A stretch of 64,000 nucleotides of DNA from an uncultured delta proteobacterium (GTDB lineage: Bacteria > Desulfobacterota > Syntrophobacteria > Syntrophobacterales > Syntrophobacteraceae). The notes beneath the pieces were generated by a model. It was given only the letters and a program-made list of their open reading frames with translations. It did not search any database and was not told where the DNA came from. Location of the stretch: positions 97,425 to 161,424 of the forward strand of contig CAWEHK010000051.1 in the NCBI GenBank assembly GCA_963808625.1. The letters are read 5' to 3'. Positions 1-54,793 of the stretch are shown here, one piece after another. Numbering within the stretch: the stretch's first letter is position 1; the number at the start of each line of letters is the position of its first letter. Made by a program: the position numbers and the translations under genes.

Positions 1-57
1 CCGAAGAGCAAGCTCTTGCGGAGTGGACATAAGTCCATTAAAGGAGACCTGATCGAT

Positions 58-621: not shown

Positions 622-624
622 AAC

Positions 625-1788: not shown

Positions 1789-2267
1789 TGCAGATTTGGG
1801 AGTCCACGAAAAGGGTTTTAACTCACAAGTATCTTGCTCTGGCATTTCGACTCTATATTGGCGGGATATTCGTCTACGCCAGCATGAACAAAATCAGTTT
1901 TACCGCTGAGTTCTCTGAAACCATCGCGAGCTACCAACTGGTCCCTTTCTGGTCGGTCAACCTTCTCGCCATTATCATGCCATGGGCCGAACTGATCTGC
2001 GGAATCCTGCTCATAACCGGAATCAGATCCAAGTCGGCCACGGTTGCCCTCAGCATCATGCTCACCGTCTTCAGTGTGGCTATTTCTCTCAGTCTCCTTA
2101 GGGACATCCCCATCGGCTGCGGTTGCTTCAGCAGTGTCGAGGAAACGATGAGTTGGACAACGCTGCTGCGGGACCTCGTTTGGCTGGTCATGTGCGCCCA
2201 TATCTACTGTTTCGATTCAGCTCTGCAGCTGGATAGGAGATTCCCTACATCGCTAAAGGACCTATGA
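1785..2267 (+). CDS. DoxX/MauE family membrane protein
   Basis: RLYIGGIFVYAS..K, PWAELICG, IGCGCF motifs; about 4 TM segments. Confidence 0.85.
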   Translation: MMQIWESTKRVLTHKYLALAFRLYIGGIFVYASMNKISFTAEFSETIASYQLVPFWSVNLLAIIMPWAELICGILLITGIRSKSATVALSIMLTVFSVAISLSLLRDIPIGCGCFSSVEETMSWTTLLRDLVWLVMCAHIYCFDSALQLDRRFPTSLKDL

Positions 2268-8039: not shown

Positions 8040-8210
8040 ACAATCAGCGGGTTTCTTACTAATGGATTGGCAGGGGAAGTGTCAAGAACTTTTTTTGGCC
8101 CAGATGTTGCCAACCCATGAGAAGTTCTTTAGACTGGCAGGAGACTTTCGGTGGCCAGGTAGGAATTGAAGACGGTTTATTCCCCGAAGCAACAGAGGAG
8201 AAAGCAGCAG

Positions 8211-11027
8211 ATGTCCCATGTGATTTTTCGCTTCGTCCTGCTGGCGCTGATCTCATTGAGCGGCTTGATCCAGACCGGCATCGCAAACGCCTCTAACGCT
8301 GCAGCCCAAGAGTCGCGTGTTCCTTCAGGAGATGAAGTTCCTCCCACGGTAACCAGGTTGTCTCCCCTTGCCATCGCTGCCATACCACCGGCAGGTCAGC
8401 ATCTGGTGCGGCCCCGCGAAGGGGTCATCGAGCGCGGACTGCGCAAACAAGGGAAAATCGTCCCCGGTATGACTCCCGACCAAATCCGCTCCGCGGTGAA
8501 GGATTATTATGATCGTTTTTCCAAGGAGTCGAGCACCTGGGTCTCGCCGGAAATTCAGGAACGGGCTCTGCAACGGCAGGCGGAATTAGGGCATGCCCAA
8601 CGGTCAGGAATGAGTCGCGAGGCCCTTCCTGCGTCCTTGGCGGTCCAGCCTGTTACTGCAGCCATCCTGGCACTCGCCGTGGATTTTGGCGGGACCGATA
8701 AGTTCAACTATTGGGCAACGTCAGGAAAAGTGTGCGCCAAGACGTCGGTGACTACCTCCGGTCCCTCACGGGGCCTGATTCCTCATCCCGGGCCACGCGA
8801 TAACAACACCATCTGGTATGCTCCTGCGACTACTGCTAACGCCAAATTCTACGAAAAGCTCATCTTCGGTTATGAGGGTGTCGGCCGGGTGCGCCGCGAT
8901 CTCCGCGACCCCGTCGATGGCAAACGCGGGATCAACCTCTCCGGCTATACCGTCCAGGACTATTACGACCATATGGCCGGCAAGGGGAATGTCCTTTTGA
9001 CCGGAAGGGTGGAAGGCTGGGTCACCGTCGACCACAGCGAAGGCTACTATGGCGCGCCCTATTGCGAGCAAAAACATGATGGCGGAGGGCTCGACCCCAC
9101 CGGGCAGCTCGTCCCCACCGGGCAGCTCGTTGTGGACGCCCTGGACAAGTTCATGGCGGCCCACCTGGACTATTACTTTGACACCAGCCCCACTGCTTTC
9201 TGGAAACAGTTCGACGCCAATCAGGATGGTGTTGTGGATTCTCTGTGGATCATTCACGCCGGCGTTGGTCAGGAAAGCGGAGGGGGAGCGCAAGGAGATT
9301 TTGCCATCTGGAGTCAGAGCTATGATTTGCGTAAATACACCGCTTATCCTCAGTGGAAGAATGGATACAAGGTCTACGAGGGCGATCCCGATACCACCGC
9401 CGACGACATCGTTGTCGGTCCCTATACCATGCAGCCGGAAAACACCGATTTGGGAGCGCTGGTTGAAGAATTTGGCCATAACTTCTTCGGGCTGCCGGAT
9501 CTTTACACGATCGATGTGGAGAACTCCGTCGGTTTCTGGAGTATCATGGCCGCCGGGACATACGGTGGTTGGCTGGGAGGCGCTACTCCCGTGGGCATGC
9601 CGCTCTGGTTTCGCATGATCGCTCAATGCGGCGACCAACCCTGTAACTGGCAGGAGCCCATGCTCTCGCTCCCATACAATAGTTCCGCCAGAAAGGTTTC
9701 CATCGGGCAGCTTGAGAGCACTCCCGAAGGCGTCTACAAGGGTATCAAGATCGATCTCCCCGATGATGTGGATCCTGGGCTGGTGAAGAACCTGGCAGGG
9801 ACTGGTAAGGGAGCTCACAGTGGCTCAGGCCGGAACAACATCGATATTACCCTCGACCGAAAAATCTGTATCTCCAAGAAAGCCGGCGCCCGCCTATCCT
9901 TTGATGCTTTCTGGGATCTCGAAGAGGATCGTGACTACGGGTATGTGATGGTGCATGACGGCACGGACTGGATATTCCTCGATGACAATGACACTGTCAT
10001 GCGAAAGACCAACCCGTACGGGAACAATCTTGCTCAGGGACTAACCGGTTCCGGCAACCAGAAACTGCGCTTCAACCTCGCCGCCTACCGAGGCAAGACC
10101 ATCACGCTCCGTCTGCGATACAAAACCGATGCCTCCAAGACCGGACCCGGATGGTGGGTGGATAACCTCAGATTGGATGGCAAATCCCTTGATCAGTTTG
10201 AAGAGGCCGTGCCACCTTCCGCCTTTTCCGGGTGGCTTAATTCCACCCCGGGCTGGCGCGTCGTTCCCCAGTACCAGTCCTATGCCAATTACTATTTGAT
10301 CGAGTGGCGGACGAACACCCGCTATGATCGTATGGTGAAAACGGCCTATGTCAAGAATATCGACGACGGGTACGAATGGCAGGTCGAGCGCATACCCTAC
10401 AATATTCCCGGGGCGGTCCTCTATTACGCCAATATGCGTTATTGCGTCTCCGATTATCGCGGGACATCCTATCTGGAGAGCAACCTGTCTGACGCTCCCA
10501 GCATCGGCCCCAAGCACCCCTTGCTGGTTGTAGACATGAATTATGGACCTCTTCGACGCGACGACAACGGATCTGTTTTCGACGCCCGTATCGCCAGCTA
10601 CGATGCCGCGCTGACGCTTCAGCCCACAAAGGCCTTCACCATTACCCAGATCGACCTGGGAGAAAGTATACTCGAAGGTCCGTGGCATTTCCCATCGAAG
10701 CCCGCGATCAGGAAATTCGACGATGCCAAAGGCTATTATGCCGGTCTTTATGCCGGAACGCCATGCAGCGAGTCTTACTGTCTTGCCAATGAAGGCGGCA
10801 GTGCCGTGATTCCGGCATTGGGCAAATACACTACCAGGATCACCCACTACGATGGCACTCCTTTTCCCGAGTTGTATGGCAAAACCGTCGAGTTGAATGG
10901 GACAAAATACCCAGGACTTAAATTGGGCAGCGGTAACCCTGGGGATAGCAAGCTCCAGTGCGGCGTGACGATCAAACTTCTCAGTTCCGACGGCCCTACG
11001 GCAAAACTCAGCATCAACAGCCAGTAG
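8211..11027 (+). CDS. Secreted immune inhibitor A-like (peptidase M6) metalloprotease, variant zinc motif
   Basis: Signal peptide; IIHAGVGQE.GGG..AIWS, YTMQPE, EEFGHNFFGLPDLY, WSIMAAG, WDLEEDRDYGYV, YYLIEWR. Confidence 0.85.
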   Translation: MSHVIFRFVLLALISLSGLIQTGIANASNAAAQESRVPSGDEVPPTVTRLSPLAIAAIPPAGQHLVRPREGVIERGLRKQGKIVPGMTPDQIRSAVKDYYDRFSKESSTWVSPEIQERALQRQAELGHAQRSGMSREALPASLAVQPVTAAILALAVDFGGTDKFNYWATSGKVCAKTSVTTSGPSRGLIPHPGPRDNNTIWYAPATTANAKFYEKLIFGYEGVGRVRRDLRDPVDGKRGINLSGYTVQDYYDHMAGKGNVLLTGRVEGWVTVDHSEGYYGAPYCEQKHDGGGLDPTGQLVPTGQLVVDALDKFMAAHLDYYFDTSPTAFWKQFDANQDGVVDSLWIIHAGVGQESGGGAQGDFAIWSQSYDLRKYTAYPQWKNGYKVYEGDPDTTADDIVVGPYTMQPENTDLGALVEEFGHNFFGLPDLYTIDVENSVGFWSIMAAGTYGGWLGGATPVGMPLWFRMIAQCGDQPCNWQEPMLSLPYNSSARKVSIGQLESTPEGVYKGIKIDLPDDVDPGLVKNLAGTGKGAHSGSGRNNIDITLDRKICISKKAGARLSFDAFWDLEEDRDYGYVMVHDGTDWIFLDDNDTVMRKTNPYGNNLAQGLTGSGNQKLRFNLAAYRGKTITLRLRYKTDASKTGPGWWVDNLRLDGKSLDQFEEAVPPSAFSGWLNSTPGWRVVPQYQSYANYYLIEWRTNTRYDRMVKTAYVKNIDDGYEWQVERIPYNIPGAVLYYANMRYCVSDYRGTSYLESNLSDAPSIGPKHPLLVVDMNYGPLRRDDNGSVFDARIASYDAALTLQPTKAFTITQIDLGESILEGPWHFPSKPAIRKFDDAKGYYAGLYAGTPCSESYCLANEGGSAVIPALGKYTTRITHYDGTPFPELYGKTVELNGTKYPGLKLGSGNPGDSKLQCGVTIKLLSSDGPTAKLSINSQ

Positions 11028-11568: not shown

Positions 11569-12672
11569 TTATCGTTTACCTCTTTCTTCATTCGGAAACC
11601 CGGTATCCCACTTGATGTATACGGGCCCTTTGACGTACTTGCCGGCAGTGCTCGCATGGGTGCCACCCTTATCCTGGTAAGTTATCCCATCAAGGGTGAT
11701 CTTCGTATCGAGCAGGCCGAGCAACGGGCTTTCTTTACTGCCCGGGCAGTAGTTGTTGCTCGCCAGACCCTGCACCCGCATCCGCGCGGCACTGGTATGC
11801 AACCGGTTAATGTTGAAAGGTTTGATCTTGCCGGTGTCCTGAGGAATCCTGAAGGAATCCAGGGAAGCTTCGATGAAGCAGCTAAAGCACTGGTGGAGCC
11901 CGGTGAACTTGATTTCATTGTAGTTCCAGATGGTAAACGTCGCCTTGGTTTTCGTGGAACCAGCTCCATCCTGCTTCAGGTCCTGAATGCAGGGGATAAG
12001 GGTCAGATCACTCTGACTAGTGGCGCTCTCTGCCGGAAAGTCGATCACCAGGTAACTGGGGCAGGCGTCATAACCGACCGCATCTTGATAGCCGCCATTC
12101 AGCAAGAGAGTTCCCCCCGTGCCGACCGGATTGCCGCGCGGCACATTGGCGGCGAAACGATACGCATTGTATTCCCAGGCGCTGCCGTTGGCAAAGTCAA
12201 CGATAATGGCCTCACCCTTGAGAGAGTTCCAGGAAATCTGGTTCTGGGCCTCGGCATCGACCGCCCAGCACTTCAGGATCCCCTCATTACCCTGTTCAAA
12301 AGGCGCTATCGGTGGGCTTTTCGCGTAACTCACATCCCACAGGTGCTCTCCCGTACTAGCTTTGAAAACGGCTGGCTGGCCGCTCGTCAGCCTAAACTGG
12401 AAGTCGGTGTTGACGCAGCCATTTCTTGTAGTACCGGTCACAGGATCCGGATTCAGGTCCTTGTATTCCCAGTAGCATTTTACATTTACGGCCGAACTAT
12501 ACGAATTGTAGATGGCAATGTAAGTGTCCTGGGTACCCGTCGTGATGATTTTGGGCCAGATCAGCAAGCTTCCCTGTTTGGTGGTATCCGTAACCGTCTG
12601 GGCAAGGCACCATGAACTCAATACCGCAATCGAAAAAGCCATGACCAAAGTCACGAGCGTGCACTTTTTCAT
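11569..12672 (-). CDS. Cys-rich secreted protein, paralog P1 (unknown family)
   Basis: AAGGAGG RBS, signal peptide, TTKQGSLLIWPKI, KCYW, LKCWAV, YDACP, LIPCIQD, IWNYNE, QCFSC. Confidence 0.8.
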   Translation of the reverse strand: MKKCTLVTLVMAFSIAVLSSWCLAQTVTDTTKQGSLLIWPKIITTGTQDTYIAIYNSYSSAVNVKCYWEYKDLNPDPVTGTTRNGCVNTDFQFRLTSGQPAVFKASTGEHLWDVSYAKSPPIAPFEQGNEGILKCWAVDAEAQNQISWNSLKGEAIIVDFANGSAWEYNAYRFAANVPRGNPVGTGGTLLLNGGYQDAVGYDACPSYLVIDFPAESATSQSDLTLIPCIQDLKQDGAGSTKTKATFTIWNYNEIKFTGLHQCFSCFIEASLDSFRIPQDTGKIKPFNINRLHTSAARMRVQGLASNNYCPGSKESPLLGLLDTKITLDGITYQDKGGTHASTAGKYVKGPVYIKWDTGFPNEERGKR

Positions 12673-12744
12673 ACTCTTACCTCCTTATCATGTTGTCGCA
12701 ATGCCAAATGGTAGCGATCACTTCGGCATCAATAGACACCTCGC

Positions 12745-13885
12745 CTAATTCACAGATACCGTAATGGCGGGGACACCCTTACAAGCGTTTCCGTTTGTCG
12801 TCCACTCACCAATGCCAGTCGGGGTTACCGCTGTTATCGGTCCCAAGAAGCCGTTGAATCTCTTAACGATAACCCCAACCGCAGGATATGCGATGTAACC
12901 TGCCGGCAGGAGGCATTCCGTGCCGCCTGCGTAGGGACAGGTCGATGGCACAAACGGCGTTGCCGTAAACGCCCCGGCAGAGGTGGATTGGACACTCTTA
13001 AAGTAGGGAGCGGCGGCAAGGGAATCTGCGAAGAAGCAGCTCAGACAAAGAGCGCTGCTGCCGCGGCCAACATCTTGCTCGTTTTCATTTCGACTTGGGG
13101 CATCGAACTTGAGAACGGTCGGACCGCCATCCTGCGTGAAGTCCTGTTTGGTGGGAGCGATCGCCACATAATTGTCCACACTGCCGGTATAGGTCTGGTC
13201 TGTAGGGTTCGGCGTCTGCCTGAGATAATCAAAGATGAGAGCGGCCGGGGCTGAATCATAGTTGCCGGCATCGCCGCTCAACTGGAGCACTCCCGGGGTC
13301 GTCCCAACCTGGGTGAGCGCGGGTGCGTTAGCCGCAAAACGCCACGCACTGTAGGTAGCAACGCCGACTCCAAAGGGTGGCAGGGGCGTTCCTGGCGGTG
13401 CGACATAATATTGCCATTGCCGCAACAGGGTCGCCTCACCGGTAAGCTGGTTATATGACATTCTGGGTAGTTGCACCACTGTCTTCCTGACTGGTTACCC
13501 AACACTTGGCTTCGGCCACATTGCCGAAGTCTATTCCGGAATCCAGAACATTGTCGCCATCCAGATCTGTCCCGTCACTGGCCTTGAAGGTTATCGGCTG
13601 GTTGGGAGTGAGGATAAAACATTGCTCAACCCGGTCGCATGCATCTTTGAGCACAAAAACACAGCATACATTAACCGAATAATAATTGTCATTGCCGATG
13701 GTGATCAGGGTTTCCCACGATTCCGTCCCAAAGTTAGGGTAAACTGTAGTATCGGTCCTGATCAAGGGAAATATCAGCAGGCTACCCTTCTTTGACGTAT
13801 TCGCGACGGTTCCCGCAAGGCAAGGTCCACCGACTGTCACAAGCAGAAAAGCTATGAGCAAACTCACGAGCATGTATTTCTTCAT
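12745..13885 (-). CDS. Cys-rich secreted protein, paralog P2 (divergent; frameshift near 13455)
   Basis: AAGGAGG RBS, MKKYML signal, NTSKKGSLLIFPLI, LTPNQPITFKASDG, KCWV, then SYNQLTGEA, KQDFTQD, RNENE, CLSC in the next frame. Confidence 0.75.
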
Positions 13886-14837
13886 ACTCCTTCCTCCTTT
13901 GAACTTGTTCAGTGATAATTGCATCAGAGGTTAACCCCTCTATGAAAAGGTTTCCACATCAGAAAACTTATGCCGCGAACAACCACCCCCCTTCCGATCT
14001 GTCAATTCAACGCCATCCTTGCTGAATTCCCAGGAGCACCCCTCTGAATCCGCCCCATCCTCCCCTGGCCTGGCAATGAACCCAACCTGTGCTCAGCTCC
14101 AGAAACCACAACAAAGCAACAACTAATGTCCTCGGCATCCCGACAAAAACCCAAAGCCCCCTCTCGGCCTGTCCGGAGCAGATCCCCGCACAGGACACAA
14201 GATTGGCTCGGGATACCGATAGAACTACGACTAACGATTGTCCGTACTTGCCTGAGCTACTTCACTAATTGCGCCATCTTTCACAGAAGCTCCCCGTATG
14301 TCAAGCAAAATCTGCATGCGACCTTACAGGACCGGGTTGCAGGTTGAACATCGCTCCCCTGACAGCAGCCATGGAACGCACCGATAACGGTATGCAAAGG
14401 AGAGCGCAACCACGGGGACGGCACCAAACGTTATTCCGACCTGGCGGCCATGACTTCACTCGACCCCATGATCAACGCTGAAAAAGGCGATATTTTTATC
14501 CTGTGCTGTGACCCTTGAGCCTACAGCATTGTATATAAAGCCAACCCGCTCCCACGTCGCCCACACGCGATGCGGAGCCCCACAGTCGGTTACAAACTCC
14601 GCTGGCGGCGCGATTTGATGGGGGTCATACCACTTCTGACCCGCTGGGAGATTATCATTTAGGGGCTTGCTACAATTCTTTGTAAAGTTTCCTTTTATCA
14701 TGATCAATTGTATAGTACCATTCTCCAGTACGATTAAAGTGCTCAACGGTGATAGCAATCCATCTTCCGATTCGTCTCCAGCGCGATGTGGATTGCTTTA
14801 TGAGGCAGGTTGGACAAGAGACAGGGGGAACACCGCA

Positions 14838-17800
14838 ATGCGTTGGAATTTCAGTCGTCTGTTTCTGCTTTTCTCTTTCGTCACCATGTTCGGATTGGTC
14901 GGGCGAGCCCATGCTGTTATCGGTCTCGTGGATACTCCGGGCTATGCGCGTTGGGTCATGGTTTCGGGACCCTACGCCTATGTGGCGGATGACTACAGCG
15001 GTCTGCAGGTCATTGATGTCAGCAATCCGAAGAAACCAACGATCACCGGTTCGGTGGACACCCCGGGCAATGCGAAAAAGGTTTTTGTTGCCGGCTCTTC
15101 CGCTTACGTGGCCGATTACTGGGACGGCTTCCACATCGTGGACATCAGCAACCCTGCATCCCCTGCCCTGGTCGCTTCTCTCTCCTTGCCGGACGCCGCC
15201 GAAGGGGTCTTTGTGTCCGGTTCCTATGCTTACGTCGCCGATGGCACCTACGGCCTCAAGGTTATTGACGTCAGCAACTCCCAGCGCCCCCACTGTCGTC
15301 GGTAGCGCGAACACTTCCGGCTATGCTCTGGATGTCAAGGTGTCGGGGTCCTATGCCTATGTGGCAGACGGACCCGGCGGTCTTCAGGTTATCGATATTT
15401 CGAAACGCGCTCAGCCCAAGATTGTGGGTGCCGCAGCCACGCCCGGCGATGCTAAGGGAGTAAGCGTAGCCTGGCCTTACGCCTATATCGCCGACGATGC
15501 TCAAGGCATTCAGGTCATCGATATTACGGAAGCCAGCAACCCAAAGATTGTCGGCTCCCTCCTCACCTCAGGCACGTGTCAGGCGGTATTTCTGGTCTAT
15601 CCCCTGCTCTTTGTGGCCGCCGATGTGGATGGGCTGAGGGTGGTTGACGTCAGCAATCCAAAAGCCCCGGTCCTGCTGGGCACGGAATTTACCTCGGGTT
15701 ACGCCTTAGGCGTTTATGTTACCGAGAGCTTGGCCTACATGGCAGACTACGACATTGGTCTCGAACTTATCGACGTCAGGAAATACTTTAGCCACATTGT
15801 CGCCACCGTCGATACCCCGGGCAATGCTTTGGATGTGAAAGTATCCGGTTCGTACGCTTATGTGGCCGATGACGCCGGAGGTCTCCAGGTGATCGATGTG
15901 GGAAAGCCTGCCGCTCCGACCATTGTTGGCTCCCTCGCGACAACGGGAAATGCGCAGGGAATCCATGTGTCCGGGTCTTATGCCTATGTCGCTGAGGACC
16001 TTGCCGGTCTTCAGGTGATCAACATCGATACCCCCCAAAGCCCGTTCGCCGTGGGTTCGATCACGCTACCCGGACAGGCCAGGGGGGTCTTCGTCTCGGG
16101 CTCCTGCGCCTATGTCGCGGCAGGGTCGGACGGTGGCCTCCAGGTGATCGACGTCGGAGATCCTGAAAATCCCGTTGTGATCGGGGCCGTCGCCACGCCC
16201 GGTTCCGCGGAAAGCGTTCGTGTGGTCGGTTCTCAGGCGTTTGTAGCCGATGGCTCGGCCGGTGGTCTGCAGGTAATTGACGTGAATAACCCGCAAAGCC
16301 CAACCATCATCGGTTCTCTGAGCACCTGGGGCACTTGTTATGAGCTTGATGTGTCCGGCACTCTGGCTTATGTGGCTGACGGGCTTAACGGCCTGACCGT
16401 TGTCGATCTCGGGGACCTCAACAACCCGATCCCGATCGGCGGCTATGAGACCGACAGCAGCGCCAGTGGAATCCGTGTCGCGGGCCTCTATGCTTTCCTG
16501 GCCACCACCACGGACGGTCTGAGCATTTTCGACATCAGCGAGCCCGCTGAACCTTTCCCAATCGTTACTGTCAACACTCCCGGTACGGCCTACAAGGTGG
16601 AGCTGTCCGGATCGTACGGCTTCATTGCGGATGGTGTTAAAGGCCTCCAGGTCATCGCGCTGTCGAATTTTCCGTGTGACCAGCAGCCCCCTGAAATTCC
16701 ATCGAGCATTTCCTATCCTGCCAGCGATGGCGACGGGATCTTCACAGTAAGCTGGCCGTCCGCACTCCGGGCCGAAACCTATAACGTCCAGCGCGCCAAT
16801 AATTCTCTTTTTACAGGCGCCATCTCCGTCTACGACGGACCCGCCACTCTTTTTCAGCAATCCAACCTATTTACCGGGACCTTTTACTATCGCGTGAGAG
16901 CCCTGAATGATTGCGGCGCGAGCGGCTGGAAAACCGGCGGCGCTATCAGCGTCACGTCCTTTCCACCCAGACCGAACAGTATCAGCTACGCAGCCAGCAG
17001 TTGCGGAGGGAGTCTGGCGATCACCTGGACATCCTCGGTTGGGGCAACCGCCTATTTAGTGCAGCGGGCCTCCAACATATCGTTTACCGACGCCATCGAT
17101 CGCTATGCCGGTCCCAGCACCTCCTTCACCGATTCGTCCCTGACTTACGGCACCTACTATTATCGCGTCAGGGCAAGCAATGGCTACGGCACAAGTCCCT
17201 GGAAAACAGGAGGCGCCACGACGGTGCCGCCTCCCCCCGCCGTTCCGGCGAGCATCACCTACCCCGCCAAGACCTGTAGCGGTAACCTCACGGTAACGTG
17301 GGCACTTGCGAGCGGGGCAACCGGTTACACCCTCCAGCGCGCAACCAAGGTCGACTTCAGCGATGCGACCCAAGTCTACCTCGGAGCGTCCAACTCTTAC
17401 ACGGAGCCCGGTCTTTCTCCCGGCACTTACTATTACCGGGTACAGGCCAACAATAGTTGCGGCAGCAGTACCTGGAAGAGCGGCTCGGCCAGCGTGGTCC
17501 CTCCCGCTCCCCCGGCCCCGGCCAGCATCTCCTACCCGGCATCAAGCTGCGGCGGCAACTTTACGGTCAGTTGGGCAGCGGTCACCGATGCGGTCTCCTA
17601 TACCCTGCAGCGCGATACTTCCGCTGCGTTCACAAGCCCCGTTGAGAATACGACGAGCTCACTTTCCTACAGCCAGGGGGCACTTTCCGCAGGGAGTTAT
17701 TTTTTCCGGGTGCGTGCGAATACCGCCTGCGGCAGCGGAGCATGGCAAACCGGCCCTGCTAGTGCGGTCCTGGCGGCACCCCCGGCCCCGGATGGCATCA

Positions 17801-20800
17801 CCTATCCCGGCAGCAGCTGCAACGGAAACTTTACCGTAACCTGGCCGGGTGTGGCCGAAGCAACTGCTTACGTGCTGCAGCGGGCAACCAATGCCTCCTT
17901 TACCGACGCCGCCCAGATTTACAGCGGCGCCGCGACGTCTTACTCCCAGGGCGCCCTCGATCCGGGCGTCTATTATTATCGGGTTCAAGGAAGCAACACC
18001 TGCGGCTCCGGCACTTGGAAGGCCGGCGCCGCGGTTACCGTGACCACCACTCCCCCGACTCCGGGAACCCTCACCTACCCCGCCAAGACCTGTAGCGGCA
18101 ACCTCACGGTAGCGTGGACTCTTGCGAGCGGGGCAACCGGTTACACCCTCCAGCGTGCAACCACTGATGCCTTCAGCGATGCGACCCAAGTTTATCTCGG
18201 AGCGTCCAACTCTTACACCGAGCCCAGTCTTGCTCCCGGCACCTACTATTACCGGGTGCAGGCAAACAACGGCTGCGGCAGCAGTGCCTGGAAAAACGGC
18301 GTGGCCACCGTGGTCACTCCTGCCCCCCCGGCCCCGGGCAGCATCTCCTACCCGGCATCAAGCTGCGGCGGCAACTTTACGGTGAGTTGGGCGGCGGTCA
18401 CCGATGCGGTCTCCTATACCTTGCAGCGCGATACTTCCGCTGCGTTCTCGAGCCCGGTCGAGAATACGACGACCTCAACTTCCTTCAACCAGGGGGCTCT
18501 TTCTGCGGGTAGTTATTTTTTCCGGGTACGAGCGAATACCGTCTGCGGCAGCGGAGCATGGCAAACCGGCCCTGCCGTTGCGGTCCTTGCGGCACCTCCT
18601 GCCCCGGCCGGCATCACTTATCCCGGCAGCAGCTGCGACGGAAACTTTACCGTAACCTGGCAGTCTGTGGCCGAAGCAACTTCTTACGTGCTGCAAAGGG
18701 CAACCAATGCCGACGTTTACCGACGCCGCCCGGTCTATACCGGCACCGCGACGTCCTACTTATCAGGCCGCCCTCGATCCGGCCGTCTATTATTACCGGG
18801 TTCGAGGAAGCAACACCTGTGGCACCGGCAGCTGGAAGGCTGGCGCCGCGGTTACCGTGACCACCAACCCTCCGACTCCGGGAAGCTCCCACCTACCCTT
18901 CGGACAACTGTGGCGGAAGTTACACGGTTAGCTGGTCCTCGGCTTCCGGGGCAACCGGCTACACCCTGCAGCGGGCAAAGAATGCCTCGTTCACCGATCC
19001 CATTACCGTTTATAGTGGTTCCAATCTCTCTTATACGGAATCGAGTGTTGCCACAGGAATTTACTATTACCGGCTTCAGGCCAGTAATCCGTGCGGCAGC
19101 AGCGCTTGGAAAAGCGGCCCGGCCATCACGGTAGTAGCTGCTACTCCCCCGCAGCCCGCCGGCATCGACTATCCGGCAAGCAATTGTGGTGGGACCTTTA
19201 CCGTCAGTTGGCCGGCCGCAAGCGGCGCCACCAGTTACAACCTCCAACGGGCCACCAACGCTTCCTTCACTTCTCCCATTTCGGTATATACCGGCGCGAC
19301 AAATTCCTTCAATCAGACCGGCCTGGCCAGCGGCACCTATTACTATCGCGTCCAGGCCTCCAATAGTTGCGGCGCCGGTGACTGGCAAACAGGCTCCGCC
19401 ATCATCGTTTCCGGTGCGCCTTCCGCTCCGGCCATACCTCTCCTATCCGGTGAGCGTTTGCGGGAGTAGCCTTAGCGTCAGTTGGGCGGCAGTTGCCGGC
19501 GCTTCAAGCTATACCCTGCAGCGGGACACCGACGCCCTCTTCACTCACCCGACTCTGGTTTATGAAGGCTCCTTGACTTCCACCACCGACACCCCGGGTG
19601 CCGGCACCTTCTATTACCGGGTGAGAGCAAACGGCGCCTGCGGCGCGAGCAATTGGACGGTCGGCGTCGGCACCGCCGTGACGCCGGTGGTGGGAACCCC
19701 GGAGACAATCAGTTATCCTTCCACCAGTTGTACCGGGAATTTCACCGTGAGCTGGTCCGCCGTGAACGGCACCGCCTATTACGCACTCGAAAGGTCTGCC
19801 AACGCATCGTTTTCACCTTCCACACAGCTCGCGACGGGACCCCAAACCTCTTACAATCAGGCAGGCCTAGCCGCCGGGACCTATTACTATCGGGTGCGGG
19901 CTTACAATTGTGGCGCCGGTGGATGGAAGGCAGGTGGCCCCATTACCGTGGGGGCATCCCAGCCTCCTGCCGCTCCCACCACGATATCCTACCCGGCAAG
20001 CAGCGCTACGGGGAGTTTTACCGTGACTTGGTCGGCCGTCAGTGAGGCTGCCGGTTACACGCTCGAGCGGGACACCAGTGATTTGTTTCCCAAGCCGGTT
20101 CAGGTTTATAGCGGAACGGCAACGTTTCCTATGACCAGCCTAAGTTGGCGGCCGGGGAAGTACTACTACCGCGTGCGGGCCAATAGCGACTGCGGCAGCA
20201 GTGATTGGCTCTCCGGCAAAAAGGTGGTGGTCGCCAGCAACCAGCCTCCGGACCTGTCCGGTCCGCCCATCGGGACCGCGACGGGAAAAACGGGTATTTC
20301 CTATAAATTCACCGGACAGGCAACCGATCCCGAAGGCAATCGCGATCAGATACCGCTTTGATTGGGGAGATGGCAGCCGTGACCTCCTGGTCGTCATTCG
20401 GCTTTCCGCGGTTACAAGTGGCACAAATGGCTTGTACCGGGTGCTTATTGTGTCAAAGTCCAGGCCAAGGACGGCAACGGGGCGCTCAGCGATTGGTCTG
20501 ACTGCGCCACGCTCAAGGTGACGAGCCGCCCGCCCGCTGCAGCCTGCTCCTCCGACCGGTCCGACCACCGGGGTCAAGAATACCTCCTACACCTTTACCG
20601 GTACCAGGCAGACGCGGACCCCGACGGCGACCCGGTCCAGTACCGCTTCTCATGGGGCGACGGGACAACCAACTCATCCTGGTCCTCGTCGCCGTCTCGG
20701 GCCCACAAGTGGGCCAAGGCGAACTCCTACTGCGTGAAAGTACAGGCACGGGATGATAAGGGCGTGACCTCCAAGTGGTCCGCGTGCGCAAACATTGAGA

Positions 20801-20811
20801 TTGGTAATTGA
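14838..20811 (+). CDS. ~1990-aa secreted surface protein: 14 LVIVD repeats, 13 FN3 domains, 2 PKD-like domains (several frameshifts)
   Basis: Signal MRWNF..AHA; 14 YAYVAD..GLQVIDVS-type repeats; 13 ISYP..FTVSW..YYYRVRA repeats; two YRF(D/S)WGDG..YCVKVQA units; homology continues across ORF breaks. Confidence 0.85.
17257..18888 (+). repeat. Tandem duplication of a three-FN3 unit (period 816 bp)
   Basis: ACCTACCCCGCCAAGACCTGTAGC at 17257 and 18073; FN3 domains 3-5 highly similar to 6-8 at DNA level. Confidence 0.85.
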
Positions 20812-20850: not shown

Positions 20851-21248
20851 TTTTTCTTGACAATTGCTTTCGTCTGCCCTAGTTAGTTAACAAACGCCGG
20901 TGGGGAATTGCATCGTGTCCTCGTTAATGAAATTAGAGCAAGTTGAGTGGGGTCAAGACTTATACGAAGCTTGTGCCGGGTTTTTTCCGAGTATACATTA
21001 GTGGATCTTTTTGGCTAACAATCTAAATATAAGGGGATATTTCGTAGCGCAGCAACAGGCAGTAACCACGGTTAAGGTCCAGCAGGCATATTGCTTTTTT
21101 TAATTGATGATTGAGATTAGGTAGAGAGGAGGTGAGATCCACTGCGCCCTGAGCAGGTGGAGTTTTGGTTTGACTGACAGGTGCTTGAAGACAGCCATTG
21201 TTGTTGTGGTAAGTTATCTTGGAATTTTTAGGCAGGAGGAAAGAGAGA
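20851..21248 (+). promoter_or_regulatory. Putative promoter and long leader of P3, with an orphan SD element at 21124-21137
   Basis: TTTTTCTTGACAATTGCTTT and GAGAGGAGGTGAGATCCA, both conserved upstream of P4. Confidence 0.5.
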
Positions 21249-22401
21249 ATGTTTAAAAAAGCAGTGTTTTTCTCATTGGCAGTTGTGTGGTTGCTTGTGG
21301 GGGTCACCACCATGGCCTCTGCTGCACAGAACGTTGGGAACACTTCTCAGAAAGGCAGTGTTCTGATTTTCCCGAAGATTGACGTTACGCCGGGGAGGGA
21401 CACGATCATTCAGCATCAGCAATGATTACCCCCGTGGTGTCATGATCAAATGCTACTGGGTGAACTATGACCAGGAAATTCAGGATTTCATGTTCCTCGT
21501 TACGATCACTCAGCCGGTGTGGTTCCGGGCGTCCGACGGATTGGGCACGGGCAGCTACAACAACGACCCGACCACTCAGCCCGTCACCGTTCCGCCCTTT
21601 TTCCCTGAGAGCGTTGGCGAATTGAAGTGCTGGGCGGTCAATTTCGAAGGGACCCAGCAAATTAGCTGGAATCATCTGTCAGGCAACGCCATGGTTCTCG
21701 ATTACATCAATCAAACAGCGTATGAATACAATTCGGTTAATTTCACGGCTCGCGGAGTTGCCCTGGCCGGCACGGTTCGTCCCGCAGGCACGATCAATCT
21801 GAGCGGCGCGGCCAACCAGTACGATGCGTGCCCGCAGTATCTGGTGTTCAATTTCTTCACTTATGATCCAACGGTGGGCAGCACCAGGGTCGTGGACATC
21901 GACGGTCAAGGCGCTGCGGTGAGGTTTAACAAGACCGACCTTACGCTGGTTCCCTGCAAGCAGGACCTGCGCCAGGATCGCGTTCCCACTTGCACGAAGG
22001 CCAAGTTTGACATCTGGAACGAAAATGAAACCAAGTACACCGGCGCCTACCAGTGCCTGAAGTGCTGGTTTGAAGGCTACCTGAACGACATCGGCACGGC
22101 CTTGGGGCATCCCGGCGGGTTTGGTGGTGAAAAGTTCACCTATCCGGGTCTGCACACCACCATGGGACGCGCGCGGGTGACCGGCGTTGCCAGTACGGTG
22201 TGTAACGGTAAGTACCCGTGTTCCACCCAGGTCAATTCGCCATTGCTTGGCATTACCTCGACCCAGGTTGAATTCCTCACTCCGGGCCAAAAGATGGAGC
22301 TGATTGCGGCCGAAGCTGTTGGCGCGGGGACGTACACGGCTGACCCCGTCAGTATCCAGTGGGATATTCAGCGGGAGCCGGAAGAGGTTTCCGGAAGGTA
22401 G
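21249..22401 (+). CDS. Cys-rich secreted protein, paralog P3 (frameshift near 21410)
   Basis: AGGAGG RBS, signal peptide, NTSQKGSVLIFPKI, KCYW, LKCWAV, YDACP, LVPCKQDLRQD, IWNENETKYTGAYQCLKC. Confidence 0.8.
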
Positions 22402-22472: not shown

Positions 22473-22804
22473 CTTGTGGCGACTCTGCCGAGTCCGGAAG
22501 AGTGAGACAGCAAGCGGGAAAAGACGAAAGTGTTTCAACCAAACTCTACTCCTGCGCGTGTTGCTTCGTGTCCTTGATTACGGCACCAGCCCCTGACCGT
22601 TATGCAGGCAGTCGCTGTGCAGTACACAAACGAATTCTTCCATACGAGGTTTTGCTTTATGTTGAGGAAGATTTTTTCACTGGTTAGCAGCAACCAGCCC
22701 GATCAGCAAATCGCTTACCGATCACCGGCCCGGCGGAAGAATCCGGCGCCTGTTCGTGCCCCCGCAGAGGGCCTCGACTGCAACTGCATGGTGCCTCGCT
22801 GACG

Positions 22805-23562
22805 ATGCTCCTCATTTTGGGCCTGTTCCTTCCTGCATGCTTGCAGGCAGCCCAGGACGAAGTGAAAGTCTTGCGTGAGCGCGCAACCACCCTCTGGGAA
22901 GCCCGCGTGAAGGGTGACTGGGCGACGATTTTTGACTATCTTATCCGCCGAGGAAAAGAAAGGGAGGGACGAAGGAACAGTATGTCCAATTCACCAAGGA
23001 AAAGGGGCCGTTCCGTTACCTTTCATACAAGCTTGGGGACGTTGATGTCGATGGTGATGTTGGTTGGGTAAAGACAACCTATGATATGGAACCGATGCAG
23101 TTTCCGGGGCTGCCCCCGCATCATATGGACACGGTACAGTTGTGGGAAAAACGTGACGGCAACTGGTACCCGATTCCGAAGGACCGACAAGAAGATGTGC
23201 CGCGTCTTCCGCCTCGCCTGCGACCGCTCAAGGAAGAGAACGCCGTGATGGCACGCGCGAACGAGTTCTGGCAGGCCCGTGAGAAAGGCGACTATGGGAC
23301 GGTCTATCAGTTCTGCGCTCCCGCCTTCCGCGAGAAGGTTGCAAAGGAAGAGTTTCTGAGCAAGAAGGCCCTTAATATTTACGTTGGCCACCAAATCCTC
23401 TTTGCAGAGGTGGCGGGCGACCGTGCCAAGGTCAAGGCAACCATTGCATACCGACCGAATGATCCGAGTTTGACCAAGATCGATCCCGCCGAGGAAACCG
23501 TTATGCAGGAATGGATCAAGGTGAAGGACCAGTGGTACCTCGACGTTAAGGAACCGGGGTAA
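22805..23562 (+). CDS. Exported hypothetical protein with two internal repeats, NTF2/SnoaL-like (frameshifted)
   Basis: LRERATTLWEARVKGDWATIFDY vs MARANEFWQAREKGDYGTVYQF; each unit ends W...DGNWY / WIKVKDQWY. Confidence 0.55.
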
Positions 23563-23676
23563 TCACAAACGGAGGCAGCTACATGTCCGGAACCGGCGAT
23601 GCGTGCAATTTACCTTGAATGGCATGACGTCAGTCTCGGGTTCAAGATTCACTAATTTTCGCAGCGGAGAGATCGC

Positions 23677-25100
23677 ATGGAGCGTTTTGTTAGATTTGTG
23701 TTTCACGACCTATTGATCCTTGCAACAGTAGTTTGCCTGGCATCGTGCGCGGGCGTCCAGACCCAACCCTCTAAGCCCGCCCAGGAACAACCGGCCCCAA
23801 AATTTAGACTTTCAGCCTCCGGTTTGGCCGCAACGGGTATGTGGAAATGCACACCGTTGGTCACCGACGTAAATCGCGACGGACACCTGGATATCATCGC
23901 CATTGCGCGCCTCGGTGATGGCGCACACGTCTCGCTTGGAGATGGGAAGGGCAACTGGACGGACTCCTCAGAAGGCCTCAAGATGAAGGGCGGATCCTGT
24001 GGAGGCGGGGTGGCTGTTGGTGACATTAACCGAGACGGTCACCTCGACCTGGTTGTTGCCGACCATTGCAGCGGCGTATATGTCTATCTGTCCGACGGGG
24101 CTGGACACTGGAAGGCAGTCACTGAGGGTCTCTATCCACCTGCTGTGAATGCCAAGGTCCAGGGCACAGGACGAGGAGCTGAAACAGATTTTCATTGGTT
24201 CTGAGGACATCGCTCTTGGCGACATCAATGGGGATGGCTTCCTCGATATCGTGGCTGCGGCTTCGGATCAGGGTGGTTTTTCGGTCTATCTTGGTAATGG
24301 CACGGGTAAGAATTGGAAACTCTGCCAAGGCTAACGGCCTGCCTGATTTGGAAAATCCCGAACCCGAAGACGAGGACAATGCCGGGTGGGCCAACCGGGT
24401 GATACTCCGTGATGTGAACGGAGACGGCCAGCTTGATGTCGTGGCATCATACTACAAGGGACCCAGGGTGTGGCTTGGTGACGGTAAAGGCCACTTCAAG
24501 AGCGTTTCTCAGGGACTTCCTTCGCCGTAATTGGCGGCCTGTACCGCGGGCTGGAGCTCGCAGACATCAATAAAGACGGGCTTTTGGACATCGTTGCGGC
24601 CAACGATGTGAATGGTCCGGAAGGTTTTCTACAACAGCCTGGTGGCTCATGGAATCCGACCGGTGACCTCATGCCGTCCATGCAGAACGGGGCCGTTGGT
24701 ATTGCTGTGGCTGACTTCGATAACGATGGTAACCTTGATCTTGTGGTCGCGCGGCCGCAAGGTAAAGGAGATGGGGAACAATTACGGCCTTTACCTCCTC
24801 CAAGGAGACGGCAGGGGCGGTTTCAAAGAACTGGTGGCAACGAACCTCCCGGCGAAGGGTCTCTCAGTGACCTGGGGAGTAGCCGTGGGCGATGTCAATG
24901 AAGATGGTCTCATTGACTTTGTCGCCGCCACCGGGGGCGCCGTGGCCGGATCAGCCGGTGCCAAACTTCCTCCCCAAGCCAAAACACGCCCTGATACAAA
25001 AGCCAAGAAACCGGTGGAGAAAGAGAAGCCGGCCAGCGATTCGATCGCGGAACTGCCCCTGCCGCGCATGCAGGCATGGGTTAACGAAGGCGTTCATTGA
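23677..25100 (+). CDS. FG-GAP/VCBS repeat beta-propeller lipoprotein (frameshifted)
   Basis: Lipobox LASC; seven D(V/I/F)(N/D)xDGxxD repeats spread over the split ORFs. Confidence 0.8.
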
Positions 25101-25147: not shown

Positions 25148-26781
25148 ATGTTCCAACAACATAATTGGCGAAAACTCTTAATCATCTCACTCAGCCTGAT
25201 GGGGGTGCTGGCGGCCACTCTTGCCGGGCTCTCCCATCGGCTGGAGTGGCTCGCCTCCCTGTGCACCGGCTTTGGTGATGGCTGCCGCGAAACGGTCGAC
25301 TTTCAATTGTTGGGCATGCCTGTCTGGCTCTGGGGGGTGATCTATTACCTCCTTGTTTCCTTGCTCCTCTTCCGCGCGTATGCTTTCTCTTCTGGCTCAT
25401 TGCCGCCGGCTTCGGAGTGGAGCTTGGCCTCATGTGGACGATGTTTTCCATGAAGGCCATTTGCGTTTTCTGCCTGGCCAATTTTCTCCTGGTCACCGGC
25501 GATGATGCTTTGCATCCTTGAAAGAGCGCGCATCTGGCAGAGCCTTACCGTGACCTTTGCGCGCCCTGCTGTTTACTGCGGTGATGGTCCCTTATGAGAA
25601 CAGCAATCTCGTTGCCGCAAGAGAAAGGCAGAATCCCGTTGTTGCGGCAATCGTCGCCGGTCAGGAGATTTCCTATGACGAACTCGTGCGCCCCGTGGCC
25701 TCGCGGATTTACGACCTGCAGCAACAGATCTATCACCTTGAACGAGACCTTTTGGACCAGTTGGTTGCGAAGATGGTTCTCGAGAAGGAAGCCGAACGAC
25801 AAGGAAAACCGCTTCAGGAATTGATCAAAGGCTATATCGGTGCGCAAAATATAGCCTGTGGGAGACCAGGAGGTTGACAATTACTATGCGGAAAATCGTG
25901 CTCGTTGGAACGAATGGAAAGGTTCCGAGCAAGAACTCTATGACCCAGATCCGAGCTTACCTTCAGCAGCAAAAGATTCAACAGAGAGTGCTGGAGTATG
26001 CTAAGTCTTTGAATCCGAAGTATGGTGTGGTCATCAATCTTAAGGAGCCCCCGTCGCCAACCATCCAGGTCGCCATTGGAAAGGACGATCCCGTGCTTGG
26101 TCCTGAAAATGCCCCTCTTACCATTGTCGAGTTCTCAGATTACCAGTGTCCGGCCTGCCGGAAAAACCATGAGGTGGTGCGCGAACTCAGGGGCCTCTAC
26201 AAGGAGCGAATCCGATGGATTTTCAAAGACTTCCCCATGCCCGGCCACAAATGGGCCAAGGGTGCGGCCCTGGCTGCACGTTGCGCTGCTGAACAGGGTA
26301 AGTTCTGGCAATACCAGGACATGCTGTTCGCCAGTCAGGATGAACTTTCCCCGGACCGTTTGACTCAGTTCGCCAAGGAGCTCGGGCTGCCGTTGGAACC
26401 CTTCCACTGAATGCCTTGAAGCCAATAGATTTCAGAACAATGTTGAAAGAGAGCGTCGAGGAGGGGAAGAAATTTGGGCTCAATTCCACTCCGACTTTTG
26501 TCATCAACAATCGCCTCGTTTCCGGGGCGCCGCCGCTTGATCGTTTCAAAAAGATTATTGACGAGGAGCTTGAGAAGGCTCGAGAAAAGCAGCTAGGGAA
26601 TGGAAGAGCCGAGCCTGCCTCATTGGCAAACCGTCCCGACAAGATCGAACGGCGGAAAAGACATTTTTTCGACTTTCCCATGGATATAATATTTTTCTTG
26701 ACAGATGCTTTTCTTTCTTATAATTTTACTCACAGCAATGCTGGACTGGGCCAAAACCGAATGGAATCTTACTGGAATTAA
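25148..26781 (+). CDS. VKOR + SurA-N-like helical region + DsbA/thioredoxin fusion (frameshifted; true stop may be TAG at 26594-26596)
   Basis: VKOR loop LCTGFGDGC, LLGMPVWLWG and ICVFC; VVAAIVAGQEISYDEL..LLDQLV; LGPENAPLTIVEFSDYQCPAC, KDFPM, NSTPTFVIN. Confidence 0.75.
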
Positions 26782-27076
26782 TGAGATAAGATTTCACTTT
26801 AACCGTCCTCATCAGAGGGCGTAGCGTAGTGTCAAAAGATGGTTAAGATGTGTGCGGTTCTGAAGTTCGTGCTGCCGGTTTCTAAAGGGGTGCTGCAAGA
26901 GTGTTTGATGCTGGGGAGTTGGCGTCTGCATTGCGGAACTCGGAGAGATCCCCATCGAGAGGAGGTGAGACCCAGGGCCAAAGCAGATAAAAGCTTGGAC
27001 TGAACTGTCTTTAAGTGTACTGATGTGAGATAGTTAATCAGTTACAGGACTTTTATGAAGCAGGAGGAAGGAAAGT
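26692..27076 (+). promoter_or_regulatory. Putative sigma70 promoter and long leader of P4, with an orphan SD at 26957-26970
   Basis: TTGACA 26698-26703 and TATAAT 26719-26724 (spacer only 15 nt); GAGAGGAGGTGAGACCCA. Confidence 0.55.
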
Positions 27077-28238
27077 ATGTTTAGGAAAACGATGGTTTTT
27101 TCTCTGGCAGTCGCGCTGGTGCTGATGGGGCTCTGCACGTATGGCCTCTGCGGCTCAGAATGTGACCAACACGTCTCAGAAAGGCAGTCTGCTGATCTTC
27201 CCCAAGATCGACACCTCTGCGATTGGACGAAAGCGGCTTTTATCGCGACACGATTGTGATGATCGGCAATGACTATTTTACCGAAGTTTGGGTTAAGTGT
27301 TACTGGGTGAACGCCGAGCAGGAAATTCAGGATTTCATGTTCCGCCTGACACCCAACCAGCCGGTTTGGTTCAGGGCCTCCGATGGCGCGGGAACCGGTT
27401 ATTACGATGATATTCAGGCCCCGTCACCGTGCCTCCGTTCTTTGACGGGTTATGGCGTCGTCGGTGAGCTCAAGTGCTGGGCGGTCGATGCCGTGGGCGA
27501 AAACCGAATTTCCTTCAACCACTGTATGGCAACGCCATCATTCTTGATCCCGTGCATGCCGCTGCCTTCGAGTATAACGCATGGGCCTTTACCGCCCGCG
27601 GGGTAGCACTGAACGGCACCGTAGGCACGCGCGGGCACCCTCGTCCTTTCCGGCGCCGACCGCGCTTATGATGCCTGCCCGAGCTATCTTGTTTTCAACT
27701 TTTTCTCCAAGGGCGCCAGCCATCAATCTACCGGATAAGGGCGGCTTTGCAACGTTCGTCAATACCGATCTGACCCTCGTTCCCTGTATCCAGGACCTGC
27801 GCCAGGACCGTGTTCCCACCTGCACCAAGGCCAAGTTCGATATCTGGAACGAGAATGAGACCAAGTACACCGGCGCCTATCAGTGCCTCAAGTGCTGGTT
27901 CGAAGGCTACCTTGGCGATATCGGTAGCTACACCATTGGATACGGCGGCGAGAAGTTCTGGTACAAGAATCTTCACACCACCGCGGGCCGCTTCCGGGTC
28001 GAAGGCATACCTAGCTACGGTGTGCAAGTTCGGTGTAGCGGGTTACCCGTTCGCCAAATGTCCTGTGGGTGCCGGGGTTCGCAGTCCTCTGCTTGGTCTG
28101 ATCAGCACGGAAATCAAGTTTACTTCCGATCCGTATGATGCGCTGGCCGGCACCACCCCGAACACCGCGGGAACGGGCATCGCCTCGACCATTCTGTGGG
28201 ATTATCAGGACGGCACCTCCGGAGGCCCCGGCCAATAG
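27077..28238 (+). CDS. Cys-rich secreted protein, paralog P4 (several frameshifts)
   Basis: AGGAGG RBS, signal, NTSQKGSLLIFPKI, KCYW, LTPNQPVWFRASDG, LKCWAV, YDACP; 41-aa block identical to P3. Confidence 0.8.
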
Positions 28239-29791: not shown

Positions 29792-30585
29792 CTAGAGTCC
29801 AAGCATCTCCGCCATATACCAGCGATAGAATTCCTCTCCCCAGAAAACATAAAGCAATGCCCCCGAGGCAAGAAAAGGTCCGAAGGGGAGCATGGTGCCA
29901 AGGCCTTGCCGGCTTCTCCACATGACGATCAGTCCCACTGCGGTCCCGATCAGGGAAGCACTGAGGACCGTAAACACTACTCCCGGTAGACCGAGAAAAG
30001 CTCCGATCATCGCCAGGAGTTTGATATCCCCGCCTCCGAGACCGTCCTTATGTCGCAAATACTGGTACCCAATGGCCACCAGGAAGAAGAACCCGCCCCC
30101 AAGAACGATTCCCAGCGAGGGAGTCCAACCACGAGAGACGCAGGGGAAATGAAAGAAAAGGCAAATCCTACAACCGTTCCGGTAATCGAAAGAACGTCGG
30201 GAATCAGATAGGTATCCAGGTCAATGAAAGTGATAAGGAGGAGCAGGGAGACGAGGACCAACTCGCAAAAGAACTGAGGAGTAAACCCGTAGTGCAAAAA
30301 CAGGAGCAAGGTCAGGACCCCGGTCAGCCCCTCCACCAGAGGATACCGCAATGGAATACGTGCTCCGCAGTGGCGGCATTTTCCTCTCAAGATCAGATAA
30401 CTCAGCAGCGGAATATTGTCATACCAGGCAATGGGATGATTACAGAGTGGACAATGCGACCCCGGGCTGACGATCGATTCTCCACCGGGCAAACGATGAA
30501 TAACAACGTTATAGAAGCTGCCAAGGCAGCAGCCCGCAAAGAACACGAACACTTCCTGGAGACTGGAAGGAATAGCGAAGGACAC
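29792..30585 (-). CDS. pilD: Prepilin peptidase/N-methyltransferase (frameshift near 30125)
   Basis: GSFYNVVIHRLP, SHCPLC, WYDNIPLLSYL.LRGKCRHC, FIDLD, GLGGGDIKL, PFGPFL. Confidence 0.92.
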
Positions 30586-30590
30586 CGGTT

Positions 30591-32899: not shown

Positions 32900-32903
32900 C
32901 AAG

Positions 32904-34013
32904 CTATCCTTTACACACAAAATATTTACCGGGCAGTTGCCGGACTGCGCCCTTCAATTCCAGCGCCAGGAGTATAGCCATAACCTGCGATGCCGGCCAC
33001 TGCAACGAGCGACATATCTCATCGATATGCCGGGGATGCAGGTCCAGGGATCTGGAGTAAGGTGGCTTCCTCCGGGGTGGCATTCTTGGCAGCCTGCAGC
33101 ATCTTCGGCCTGAGCTTTGGGCACCCAGCTCGGGCGAATCAGAGGTCGGACCTCTTCCAGGATATCTTCTGCACTTTCGACCAGTTTCGCCCCCTGCTTC
33201 AGGAGGCGATGCGGACCGACACTGCGGTAATTGCGGGCCATCCCGGGAACGGCGAAGACCTCCCTTCCCTGCTCCAGAGCCAGGCGGGCCGTAATCAAGG
33301 AGCCGCTGCGATGGGCCGCCTCGACGACCACCACGCCGAGAGCCAGGCCGCTGATGATCCGGTTGCGCATGGGAAAATGACCCGGAGCAGGCGGCGTCCC
33401 CAGGGGAAATTCTGTGAGGATGGCCCCCGATTCGGACATTTCTCTGCGCAGTTTGGCATTCCCTCGAGGATAATCCACATCCAGGCCGCAGCCAAGCACT
33501 GCCAGGGTCCGCCCGCGCGCCTTGAGGGCCCCGCGATGGGCGGCACTGTCGATACCGACGGCAAGGCCGCTGACAATCGTCACCCCCGCTTGCACGAGAT
33601 CACCGCAGAGCTGTTCCGTAAAGATCATTCCCATCGGAGAAGCAGCCCGCGACCCAACCACCGCAATCGAGACGAGATCTCTTGCCGCCAGCGTTCCTCT
33701 CACAAAAAGCACCGCCGGAGGGTCCGGTATTGCCGCAAGGTTCGCGGGGTACTGCGGATCATTTAAGCACAGCAGGTCAATTCCCTCTTTTTGAAGCTTT
33801 ATCCACTCGGCTTCGGGGGAACGAATCATGGTTTTCTTGATCAGGGCAAGCCGCGCGTTCTCTTTGAGTCCCGGAACGGCCGCAAGGTCTCCGGCTCCGG
33901 CTCGCAGGATCGCTGACGGCGTTTGAAAGTGTCGCAGCAGGCGAAGCAGCGAACGATTCCCCAATTCGGGAATCAGTTTCAAAGCCCAGCCAGGCAATTC
34001 GCTCTTCATCCAT
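32904..34013 (-). CDS. dprA: DNA-processing protein DprA (frameshifts at both ends)
   Basis: AVVGSR, IVSGLAVGIDSAAH, FPMRNRIISG, SGSLITA; C-terminal LELKGAVRQLPG; upstream of topA. Confidence 0.93.
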
Positions 34014-54694: not shown

Positions 54695-54793
54695 CGAACG
54701 GTCAAGCCGCACCAAACCATGCTTTGCGCTCTTTTCGCCTTCCTGGTTAGAAACAGAAGTTTAAGGATAGCACCATTTTTTTGAGCAGGATTG

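Follow-up and report, generated by a model that had tools for sequence, protein, structure and literature searches.

Why should a tandem array of FN3 domains carry single cysteines in two loops of most of its repeats, and with which partners might they bond? This question is raised by one gene in the window, i.e. the whole stretch of 64,000 nucleotides analysed here (contig CAWEHK010000051.1, from an uncultured delta proteobacterium), to which all coordinates refer. The gene lies on the + strand, runs from an ATG at 14838 to a stop codon at 20809–20811 (three-frame reading and self-search), and encodes a signal peptide, 14 LVIVD repeats, a linker with one cysteine, 13 FN3 repeats and two PKD domains, in that order. 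Our analysis indicates that the A-B loop cysteine of repeat n is probably bonded to the F-G loop cysteine of repeat n+1, which would place inter-domain disulfide staples along an FN3 stalk; we estimate the probability of this at about 85%.

The 13 FN3 repeats (R1 to R13) span 16684–20235 and contain 89–93 residues each. They show the seven-strand sandwich, the Trp of strand B, the Tyr corner and the AxNxxG motif (alignment and structural model), and the main frame scores 49.8 bits against FN3 family PF00041 (cut-off 25), single repeats scoring weakly. R6–R8 are a duplicate of R3–R5, with approximately 90% DNA identity. Mapping the repeats and locating each codon bore out the description given in the first-pass annotation of this DNA, namely 13 repeats with A-B and F-G cysteines and three absences (R1 A-B, R2 F-G and R13 A-B). 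The array and its linker hold 24 cysteines in total (one in the linker, 11 in A-B and 12 in F-G loops), distributed as follows.

16675–16677, + strand: linker cysteine (FPCD), present also in the orthologues from genomes G007 and G002 and in orthologous proteins P0001, P0002 and P0004; compare the relatives with a linker donor, below
16684–16959, + strand: FN3 R1, F-G cysteine only; A-B loop SDGDG
16960–17232, + strand: FN3 R2, A-B cysteine only
17233–19959, + strand: FN3 R3–R12, both cysteines in each
19960–20235, + strand: FN3 R13, F-G cysteine only
A-B cysteine codons, + strand: R2 17002, R3 17275, R4 17548, R5 17818, R6 18091, R7 18364
A-B cysteine codons (continued), + strand: R8 18634, R9 18909, R10 19185, R11 19459, R12 19729
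F-G cysteine codons, + strand: R1 16912, R3 17458, R4 17728, R5 18001, R6 18274, R7 18544
F-G cysteine codons (continued), + strand: R8 18818, R9 19092, R10 19368, R11 19639, R12 19909, R13 20191
Codons at the absent cysteines, + strand: R1 A-B GGC 16729, R2 F-G TAC 17185, R13 A-B GCT 20005

When three absences are placed at random among the 26 sites, no cysteine is left unpaired in only 12 of 2600 placements (0.5%). Two of the three codons are one base off TGC; the orthologues, however, lack the same cysteines through other residues, and the absences are therefore not read errors. The orthologue of G007 has an unbroken frame of 1986 codons, which ends at the contig end, and an identical cysteine pattern. 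That of G002 has the same linker cysteine and the same gaps, and the three gaps are also found in P0001, P0002 and P0004, which contain 13, 14 and 16 repeats, respectively. The residues at the gaps differ between orthologues, and the gaps are thus inherited. All extra repeats of the orthologues were inserted among the stapled repeats. In G002 (locus L022, 14400–16000) a recent expansion was observed, with near-identical repeats and a shortened A-B loop (TTCGE), in which both cysteines are kept.

The positions of the loops decide which cysteines can meet. According to the available parts of two published sources, the AxNxxG motif of the F-G hairpin marks the FN3 domain's N-terminal pole (PMC10665226), and the A-B and E-F loops are “south” loops, while F-G is a “north” loop (PMC7140400). 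An AlphaFold model of the segment from the linker to R3 (39-row alignment; predicted local distance difference test score, pLDDT, 96; predicted template modelling score, pTM, 0.75) confirmed the FN3 fold and the loop positions of the cysteines. The turn that follows strand F holds C83 and C265, and C113 and C204 immediately precede strand B. The model, together with both sources, agrees with the earlier statement that the A-B and F-G loops lie at opposite poles. The best fold match was titin A77-A78 (Z 15.6, root-mean-square deviation 5.8, 180 aligned), and the listed top matches contain FN3 domains; no closely related protein with a solved structure was found. With the acceptor at the N-terminal pole and the donor sites at the C-terminal pole, the two can meet only across a joint.

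It might be supposed that the two cysteines of each repeat bond within their own domain, as 10 of the 13 repeats carry both. This is hardly credible and is already contradicted by the data: the two residues lie at opposite poles, four cysteines of the window's protein would be left unpaired, and in relatives the A-B and F-G cysteines of the same repeat show no association (p 1.0 and 0.67). The first-pass annotation had preferred the A-B(n) to F-G(n+1) register to pairing within a domain, and its choice gains strong support from co-presence, the loop positions in the model and the pole geometry of FN3, although it remains an inference.

The rule was then followed in relatives, whose repeats were located by means of a profile built from 12 window repeats (R8, which is broken, was left out). 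A first pass over 120 proteins, 22 of them with both cysteine types, gave 22/319 mismatches for A-B(n) to F-G(n+1), against 56/350 for the same domain and 45/319 for the reversed register. A second pass covered 247 proteins, with the window's own protein (P0003) and 17 cluster duplicates dropped; two or more F-G cysteines were present in 44 of these. Inspection of the mismatches revealed alternative donors, placed either in the linker preceding the acceptor domain (P0089, P0138, P0149 and others) or in the E-F loop (P0142, P0214). In a third pass the windows were widened, three more pieces belonging to the window's own protein or to G002 were dropped, and repeats of the hairpin type were skipped. 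For the 32 proteins of the A-B type, the mismatches were 11/410 for A-B(n) to F-G(n+1), 38/410 and 48/410 for same-domain pairing and 45/410 for a further register. When any donor at the C-terminal pole (A-B, E-F or linker) was accepted, only 9/479 mismatches remained among 41 proteins. The last cysteine-bearing repeat lacks the A-B and keeps the F-G cysteine in 20 of the 26 arrays in which this could be called (a further six ended too close for a call), and one other array keeps the A-B cysteine only. Separate natural tests of the rule are provided by an internal skip in P0011 and by alternating A-only and F-only repeats in P0114, as well as by the linker and E-F donors. The relatives span several phyla, with Bacteroidota, Ca. 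Eisenbacteria and Chloroflexota among the names of their sources.

Several observations weigh against inter-domain staples, or against the strength of these figures. The staples are deduced from co-presence, loop positions in a model and pole geometry. With the strict A-B window the 44 proteins gave 83/490 mismatches, most of them from proteins without any A-B cysteine, and the windows and donor classes of the third pass were picked after inspection. Eight of the nine final mismatches come from P0010, whose A-B cysteine tracks a linker cysteine; even this exception puts the A-B cysteine at the joint. Nor can the counts be treated as independent: 8 proteins of about five lineages supply the 13 jointly empty joints, four of these proteins being orthologues with one shared event and P0114 contributing six of the joints, and the p-values therefore overstate the case. 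Five arrays keep both cysteines in their last repeat. Moreover, 203 of the 247 relatives have fewer than two F-G cysteines, which means that arrays of this type can do without staples. Finally, the gene is frameshifted both in this assembly and in G002.

Other cysteine codes were also met in FN3 arrays, namely the A-B to linker pattern of P0010 an F-G hairpin (RAC..C) in RHS-type proteins (P0039, P0062, P0078), and further patterns with a single cysteine or with cysteines in strands F-G (P0045, P0068). A D-x-D-G loop was considered as a substitute for the staple. It occurs in 24/53 repeats without and in 10/70 with an A-B cysteine and is missing from R1 of P0004, which is not decisive.

If the A-B(n) to F-G(n+1) pairing is correct, the 24 cysteines would pair up in 12 disulfides, every one of them spanning a joint between domains. 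The linker cysteine (16675) is the predicted partner of the F-G cysteine of R1 (16912); from R2 onward each A-B cysteine would bond to the next F-G cysteine, up to R13, and the R1/R2 joint would have no bond. A propeller cysteine (GSCAYVA) was set aside as a partner of the linker cysteine, its repeat position differing between orthologues. Each stapled joint would then consist of two links, the backbone and a disulfide, limiting twist and bend. An F-G cysteine and the next A-B cysteine are 30 residues apart (cysteine positions of G007), and for every two domains pull would be carried by only some 30 residues rather than some 182. One such lane would run unbroken from the linker cysteine to R13, the open joint included. 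Because the overlapping bridges shorten the load path, the stalk should barely lengthen even if domains unfold. The resistance to stretch follows more directly from this topology than does stiffness. Of the covalently stiffened stalk proposed earlier, the stapling is supported by co-presence, while the stiffness itself is plausible.

The R1/R2 joint deserves separate comment. It is the unstapled one in all six orthologues seen (6/6), and its spacing of 91 residues equals that of stapled joints. Its linker carries a conserved S[FY]P (S-F-P in the window), and an aromatic residue was found in the linker of 4/4 open joints versus 3/48 stapled ones in four orthologues, which are related sequences reflecting one event. 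Judged from its sequence, R1/R2 is a differently built joint, and the hinge proposed by the first-pass annotation is one way in which it may act. Identities and a cysteine-masked tree did not decide whether R1 is a fused-in module of the linker type (a fusion scar). The propeller and R1 would be joined to the rod by the backbone alone, and the stalk would keep the propeller head at a fixed distance. A broader proposal may be built on these data: a general code of bacterial FN3 joints, with a fixed acceptor cysteine in the AxNxCG turn of the downstream domain, a donor at the C-terminal pole of the upstream one (A-B loop, E-F loop or linker), and paired losses that open joints. In this proposal R1/R2 is a selected swivel with which the head searches, the covalent path that bears load between head and tail remaining short. 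Taken as a whole, this proposal is possible but doubtful.

The remaining parts of the protein are as follows.

14838–14915, + strand: start codon, then a signal peptide of the Sec type with AHA at its end (recognised by eye; the N-termini of the orthologues are similar)
14916–16665, + strand: 14 LVIVD repeats (Pfam PF08309; repeat count), with a frameshift near 15282
20239–20811, + strand: two PKD domains (Pfam PF00801/PF18911), with several frame breaks

The signal peptide suggests that the protein is exported via Sec. The LVIVD part consists of 14 tandem repeats of 42 residues, as is typical of PF08309, with a short linker after the seventh in the window and in the orthologues. The repeats therefore likely form two 7-blade propellers; of the double propeller claimed by the first-pass annotation, the repeat count and the linker position are established at the sequence level, closure of the blades being beyond what they show. 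The head is likely a binding module. The PKD domains, which follow the FN3 array and were absent from that annotation, each contain a YC...C pair, probably bonded inside its own domain. Three complete orthologues also end in PKD domains, and no anchor was recognised by eye or in Pfam scans.

The closest known parallel in design is GhpA of Aureispira. In the accessible part of the report (bioRxiv 10.1101/2024.01.29.577165), cryo-electron microscopy revealed intra-molecular disulfides between nearby Ig-like domains of this giant secreted protein, in which tandem Ig-like repeats bear a head at the far end. The GhpA pair Cys2988-Cys3140 is 152 residues apart, as are the codons at 17002 and 17458 (152 codons). 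As far as that text goes, GhpA differs in having 52 Ig-like repeats, a sorting domain of the type IX secretion system (T9SS) and a heptameric form, whereas the present protein has FN3 repeats, an LVIVD head and a PKD tail. No T9SS sorting domain was found here, the protein and its three complete orthologues ending in PKD domains; the CHU_C matches are short stretches inside FN3 repeats, and there was no sequence or fold match to GhpA among the matches listed. The stalk likely works like the GhpA stem without being a member of the GhpA family.

GhpA also bears on the possibility that the same register operates between chains of a bundle or filament, with the A-B(n) cysteine of one molecule bonded to F-G(n+1) of an adjacent one. 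Co-presence does not separate the two arrangements, and GhpA forms a bundle of seven chains according to the same source. Nevertheless, the two cysteines lie on either side of a single joint within one chain, the linker donor lies only a few residues before its acceptor domain, and the GhpA bonds are described there as intra-molecular; bonding between chains is thus quite unlikely.

Other known systems share single features with the stalk. Titin A77-A78 (PDB 3LPW) has PxP and AxNxxG motifs at the N-terminal pole and short linkers, but the A-band FnIII domains are cytoplasmic and owe their rigid joints to non-covalent contacts, as the consulted part of PMC10665226 describes; the aligned stretches shown contain no cysteine at the NxxG site. 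LVIVD cell-surface proteins (PF08309) are built of 42-residue repeats and are considered likely surface proteins in the available text of PMC2447325, while here 14 repeats stand on a cysteine-patterned FN3 stalk. Bacterial FN3 arrays free of cysteine (PF00041) have the same fold and motifs without paired cysteines and make up the majority of matches (203/247). Exact-phrase searching of the literature, with partial coverage, yielded no case of an inter-domain disulfide between FN3 domains, which is weak evidence of absence. Insofar as the GhpA report could be consulted, the bracing principle is already known from that protein.

With the staples, a principle known from one solved filament would reach the FN3 fold and several phyla. 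Exact and cheap tests are offered by the named cysteine pairs, the single natural open joint and the three kinds of donor, and the rule could guide the design of rigid or stretch-limited FN3 linkers. The finding does not reveal the ligand of the head or a new pathway.

A bonded stalk needs some oxidase, and two candidate routes are encoded in the window.

25148–26781, + strand: VKOR-like/SurA-N-like/DsbA (CPAC) fusion, with a frameshift in this assembly and an intact 480-aa version in G007
1785–2267, + strand: MauE with a CGC motif; a thioredoxin-like gene (1–621) lies two genes upstream

VKOR proteins are marked by a loop cysteine pair and a CxxC motif, and the fusion gene has C...GDGC and CVFC in the window, G002 and G007. 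The VKOR family PF07884 matched the G007 orthologue below its cut-off (E 0.0015, 19.1 bits against 27.5, model positions 2–133 of 134) and gave no match in the window's own, frameshifted genome. The genome contains three MauE matches, and MauE can replace DsbB, as stated in the available part of a preprint (bioRxiv 10.64898/2026.03.05.709764). At 1–2267 (+ strand), thioredoxin-like, rhodanese-domain and MauE (CGC) genes follow one another and may form an oxidative-folding unit based on MauE. Judging by these sequences, the VKOR-like-DsbA fusion and MauE are candidate oxidase routes for the stalk, whose cysteine pairs would be oxidised in the periplasm after Sec export by such a general system (VKOR-like-DsbA or MauE/thioredoxin). 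The earlier suggestion that the stalk is a client of the VKOR-DsbA fusion received no specific support: the N-terminal part of the fusion occurs in 36 of the 37 family genomes searched, this one included, the long cysteine-patterned array in 3 of 81, and there are the three MauE genes.

The same genes bear on whether the cysteines might remain unoxidised or coordinate a metal at the joint. Family matches point weakly to an anaerobic host of the Desulfobacterota type, no DsbB match was found in the 85%-complete genome, and some relatives have D-x-D-G loops at the same site. The presence of the VKOR-like-DsbA gene and three MauE genes, the strict pairwise co-loss and the even cysteine counts speak for bonding, and the repeat alignment contains no conserved His or further cysteine ligands. 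We therefore consider reduced or metal-bound cysteines very unlikely.

A separate question is whether the protein is made in this organism at all. The stalk frame shifts at approximately 18760, 18890 and 19434, which had not been mentioned before, and other breaks of the gene lie near 15282, 20341–20397, 20545 and 20604, giving about nine breaks over 6 kb. These, and the accessory nature of the gene (present in 3 of 8 genomes of the genus), could indicate a pseudogene. However, topA (30509–32920) and the CDP-glucose dehydratase gene (54791–55910) are also split by single-base shifts, the FG-GAP and VKOR-DsbA genes are split here yet intact in G007, and the stalk segments contain no in-frame stop. 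Since such ordinary genes are affected too, the frameshifts are probably assembly indels, and a pseudogene is unlikely. Many genes of the window are split, and claims made at the level of open reading frames need care in this assembly.

In G001, G004 and G005 the surrounding cluster is kept and the stalk gene is missing. Apart from the three genomes with the long array, weak matches were found in two others (G068 and G065), and one locus read in G068 contained no such array. No second cysteine-patterned array of this kind was found elsewhere in the window's own genome. A scan of genome contigs brought up 18 FN3 loci, every one of them distant. One frame of 2085 codons in the window's own genome (contig C8, locus L024, 3703–9957) combines VWA-like, short-repeat, cysteine-free FN3 and FGE-sulfatase-like parts (by eye).

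Among the neighbouring genes, a cysteine-rich family whose members begin with a signal-like N-terminus and contain a KGS[LV]LI[FW]P motif is represented at 11569–13924 (− strand), 21240–22401 (+) and approximately 27060–28238 (+). It has about ten copies in the genome and is clustered at the locus in all seven relatives whose stretch covered it; it is absent from the G003 stretch. There was no Pfam match, and the ESM Atlas gave unnamed clusters (0.94) and a weak lead to the Slr4 S-layer protein (0.77, 22% of members). These proteins are candidate S-layer or sheath proteins, and they are likelier regular clients of VKOR-like-DsbA than the stalk. A gene for a putative two-repeat lipoprotein and an FG-GAP gene (approximately 22800–25100, +) precede the VKOR-like-DsbA gene, an arrangement shared with G002 and five other genomes in the genus. 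Further away, the window encodes an Immune inhibitor A-type M6 peptidase (8166–11027, +), conserved at the locus in the genus, and a MntA/HepT type VII toxin-antitoxin pair (51492–52390, +) within a polysaccharide-synthesis region.

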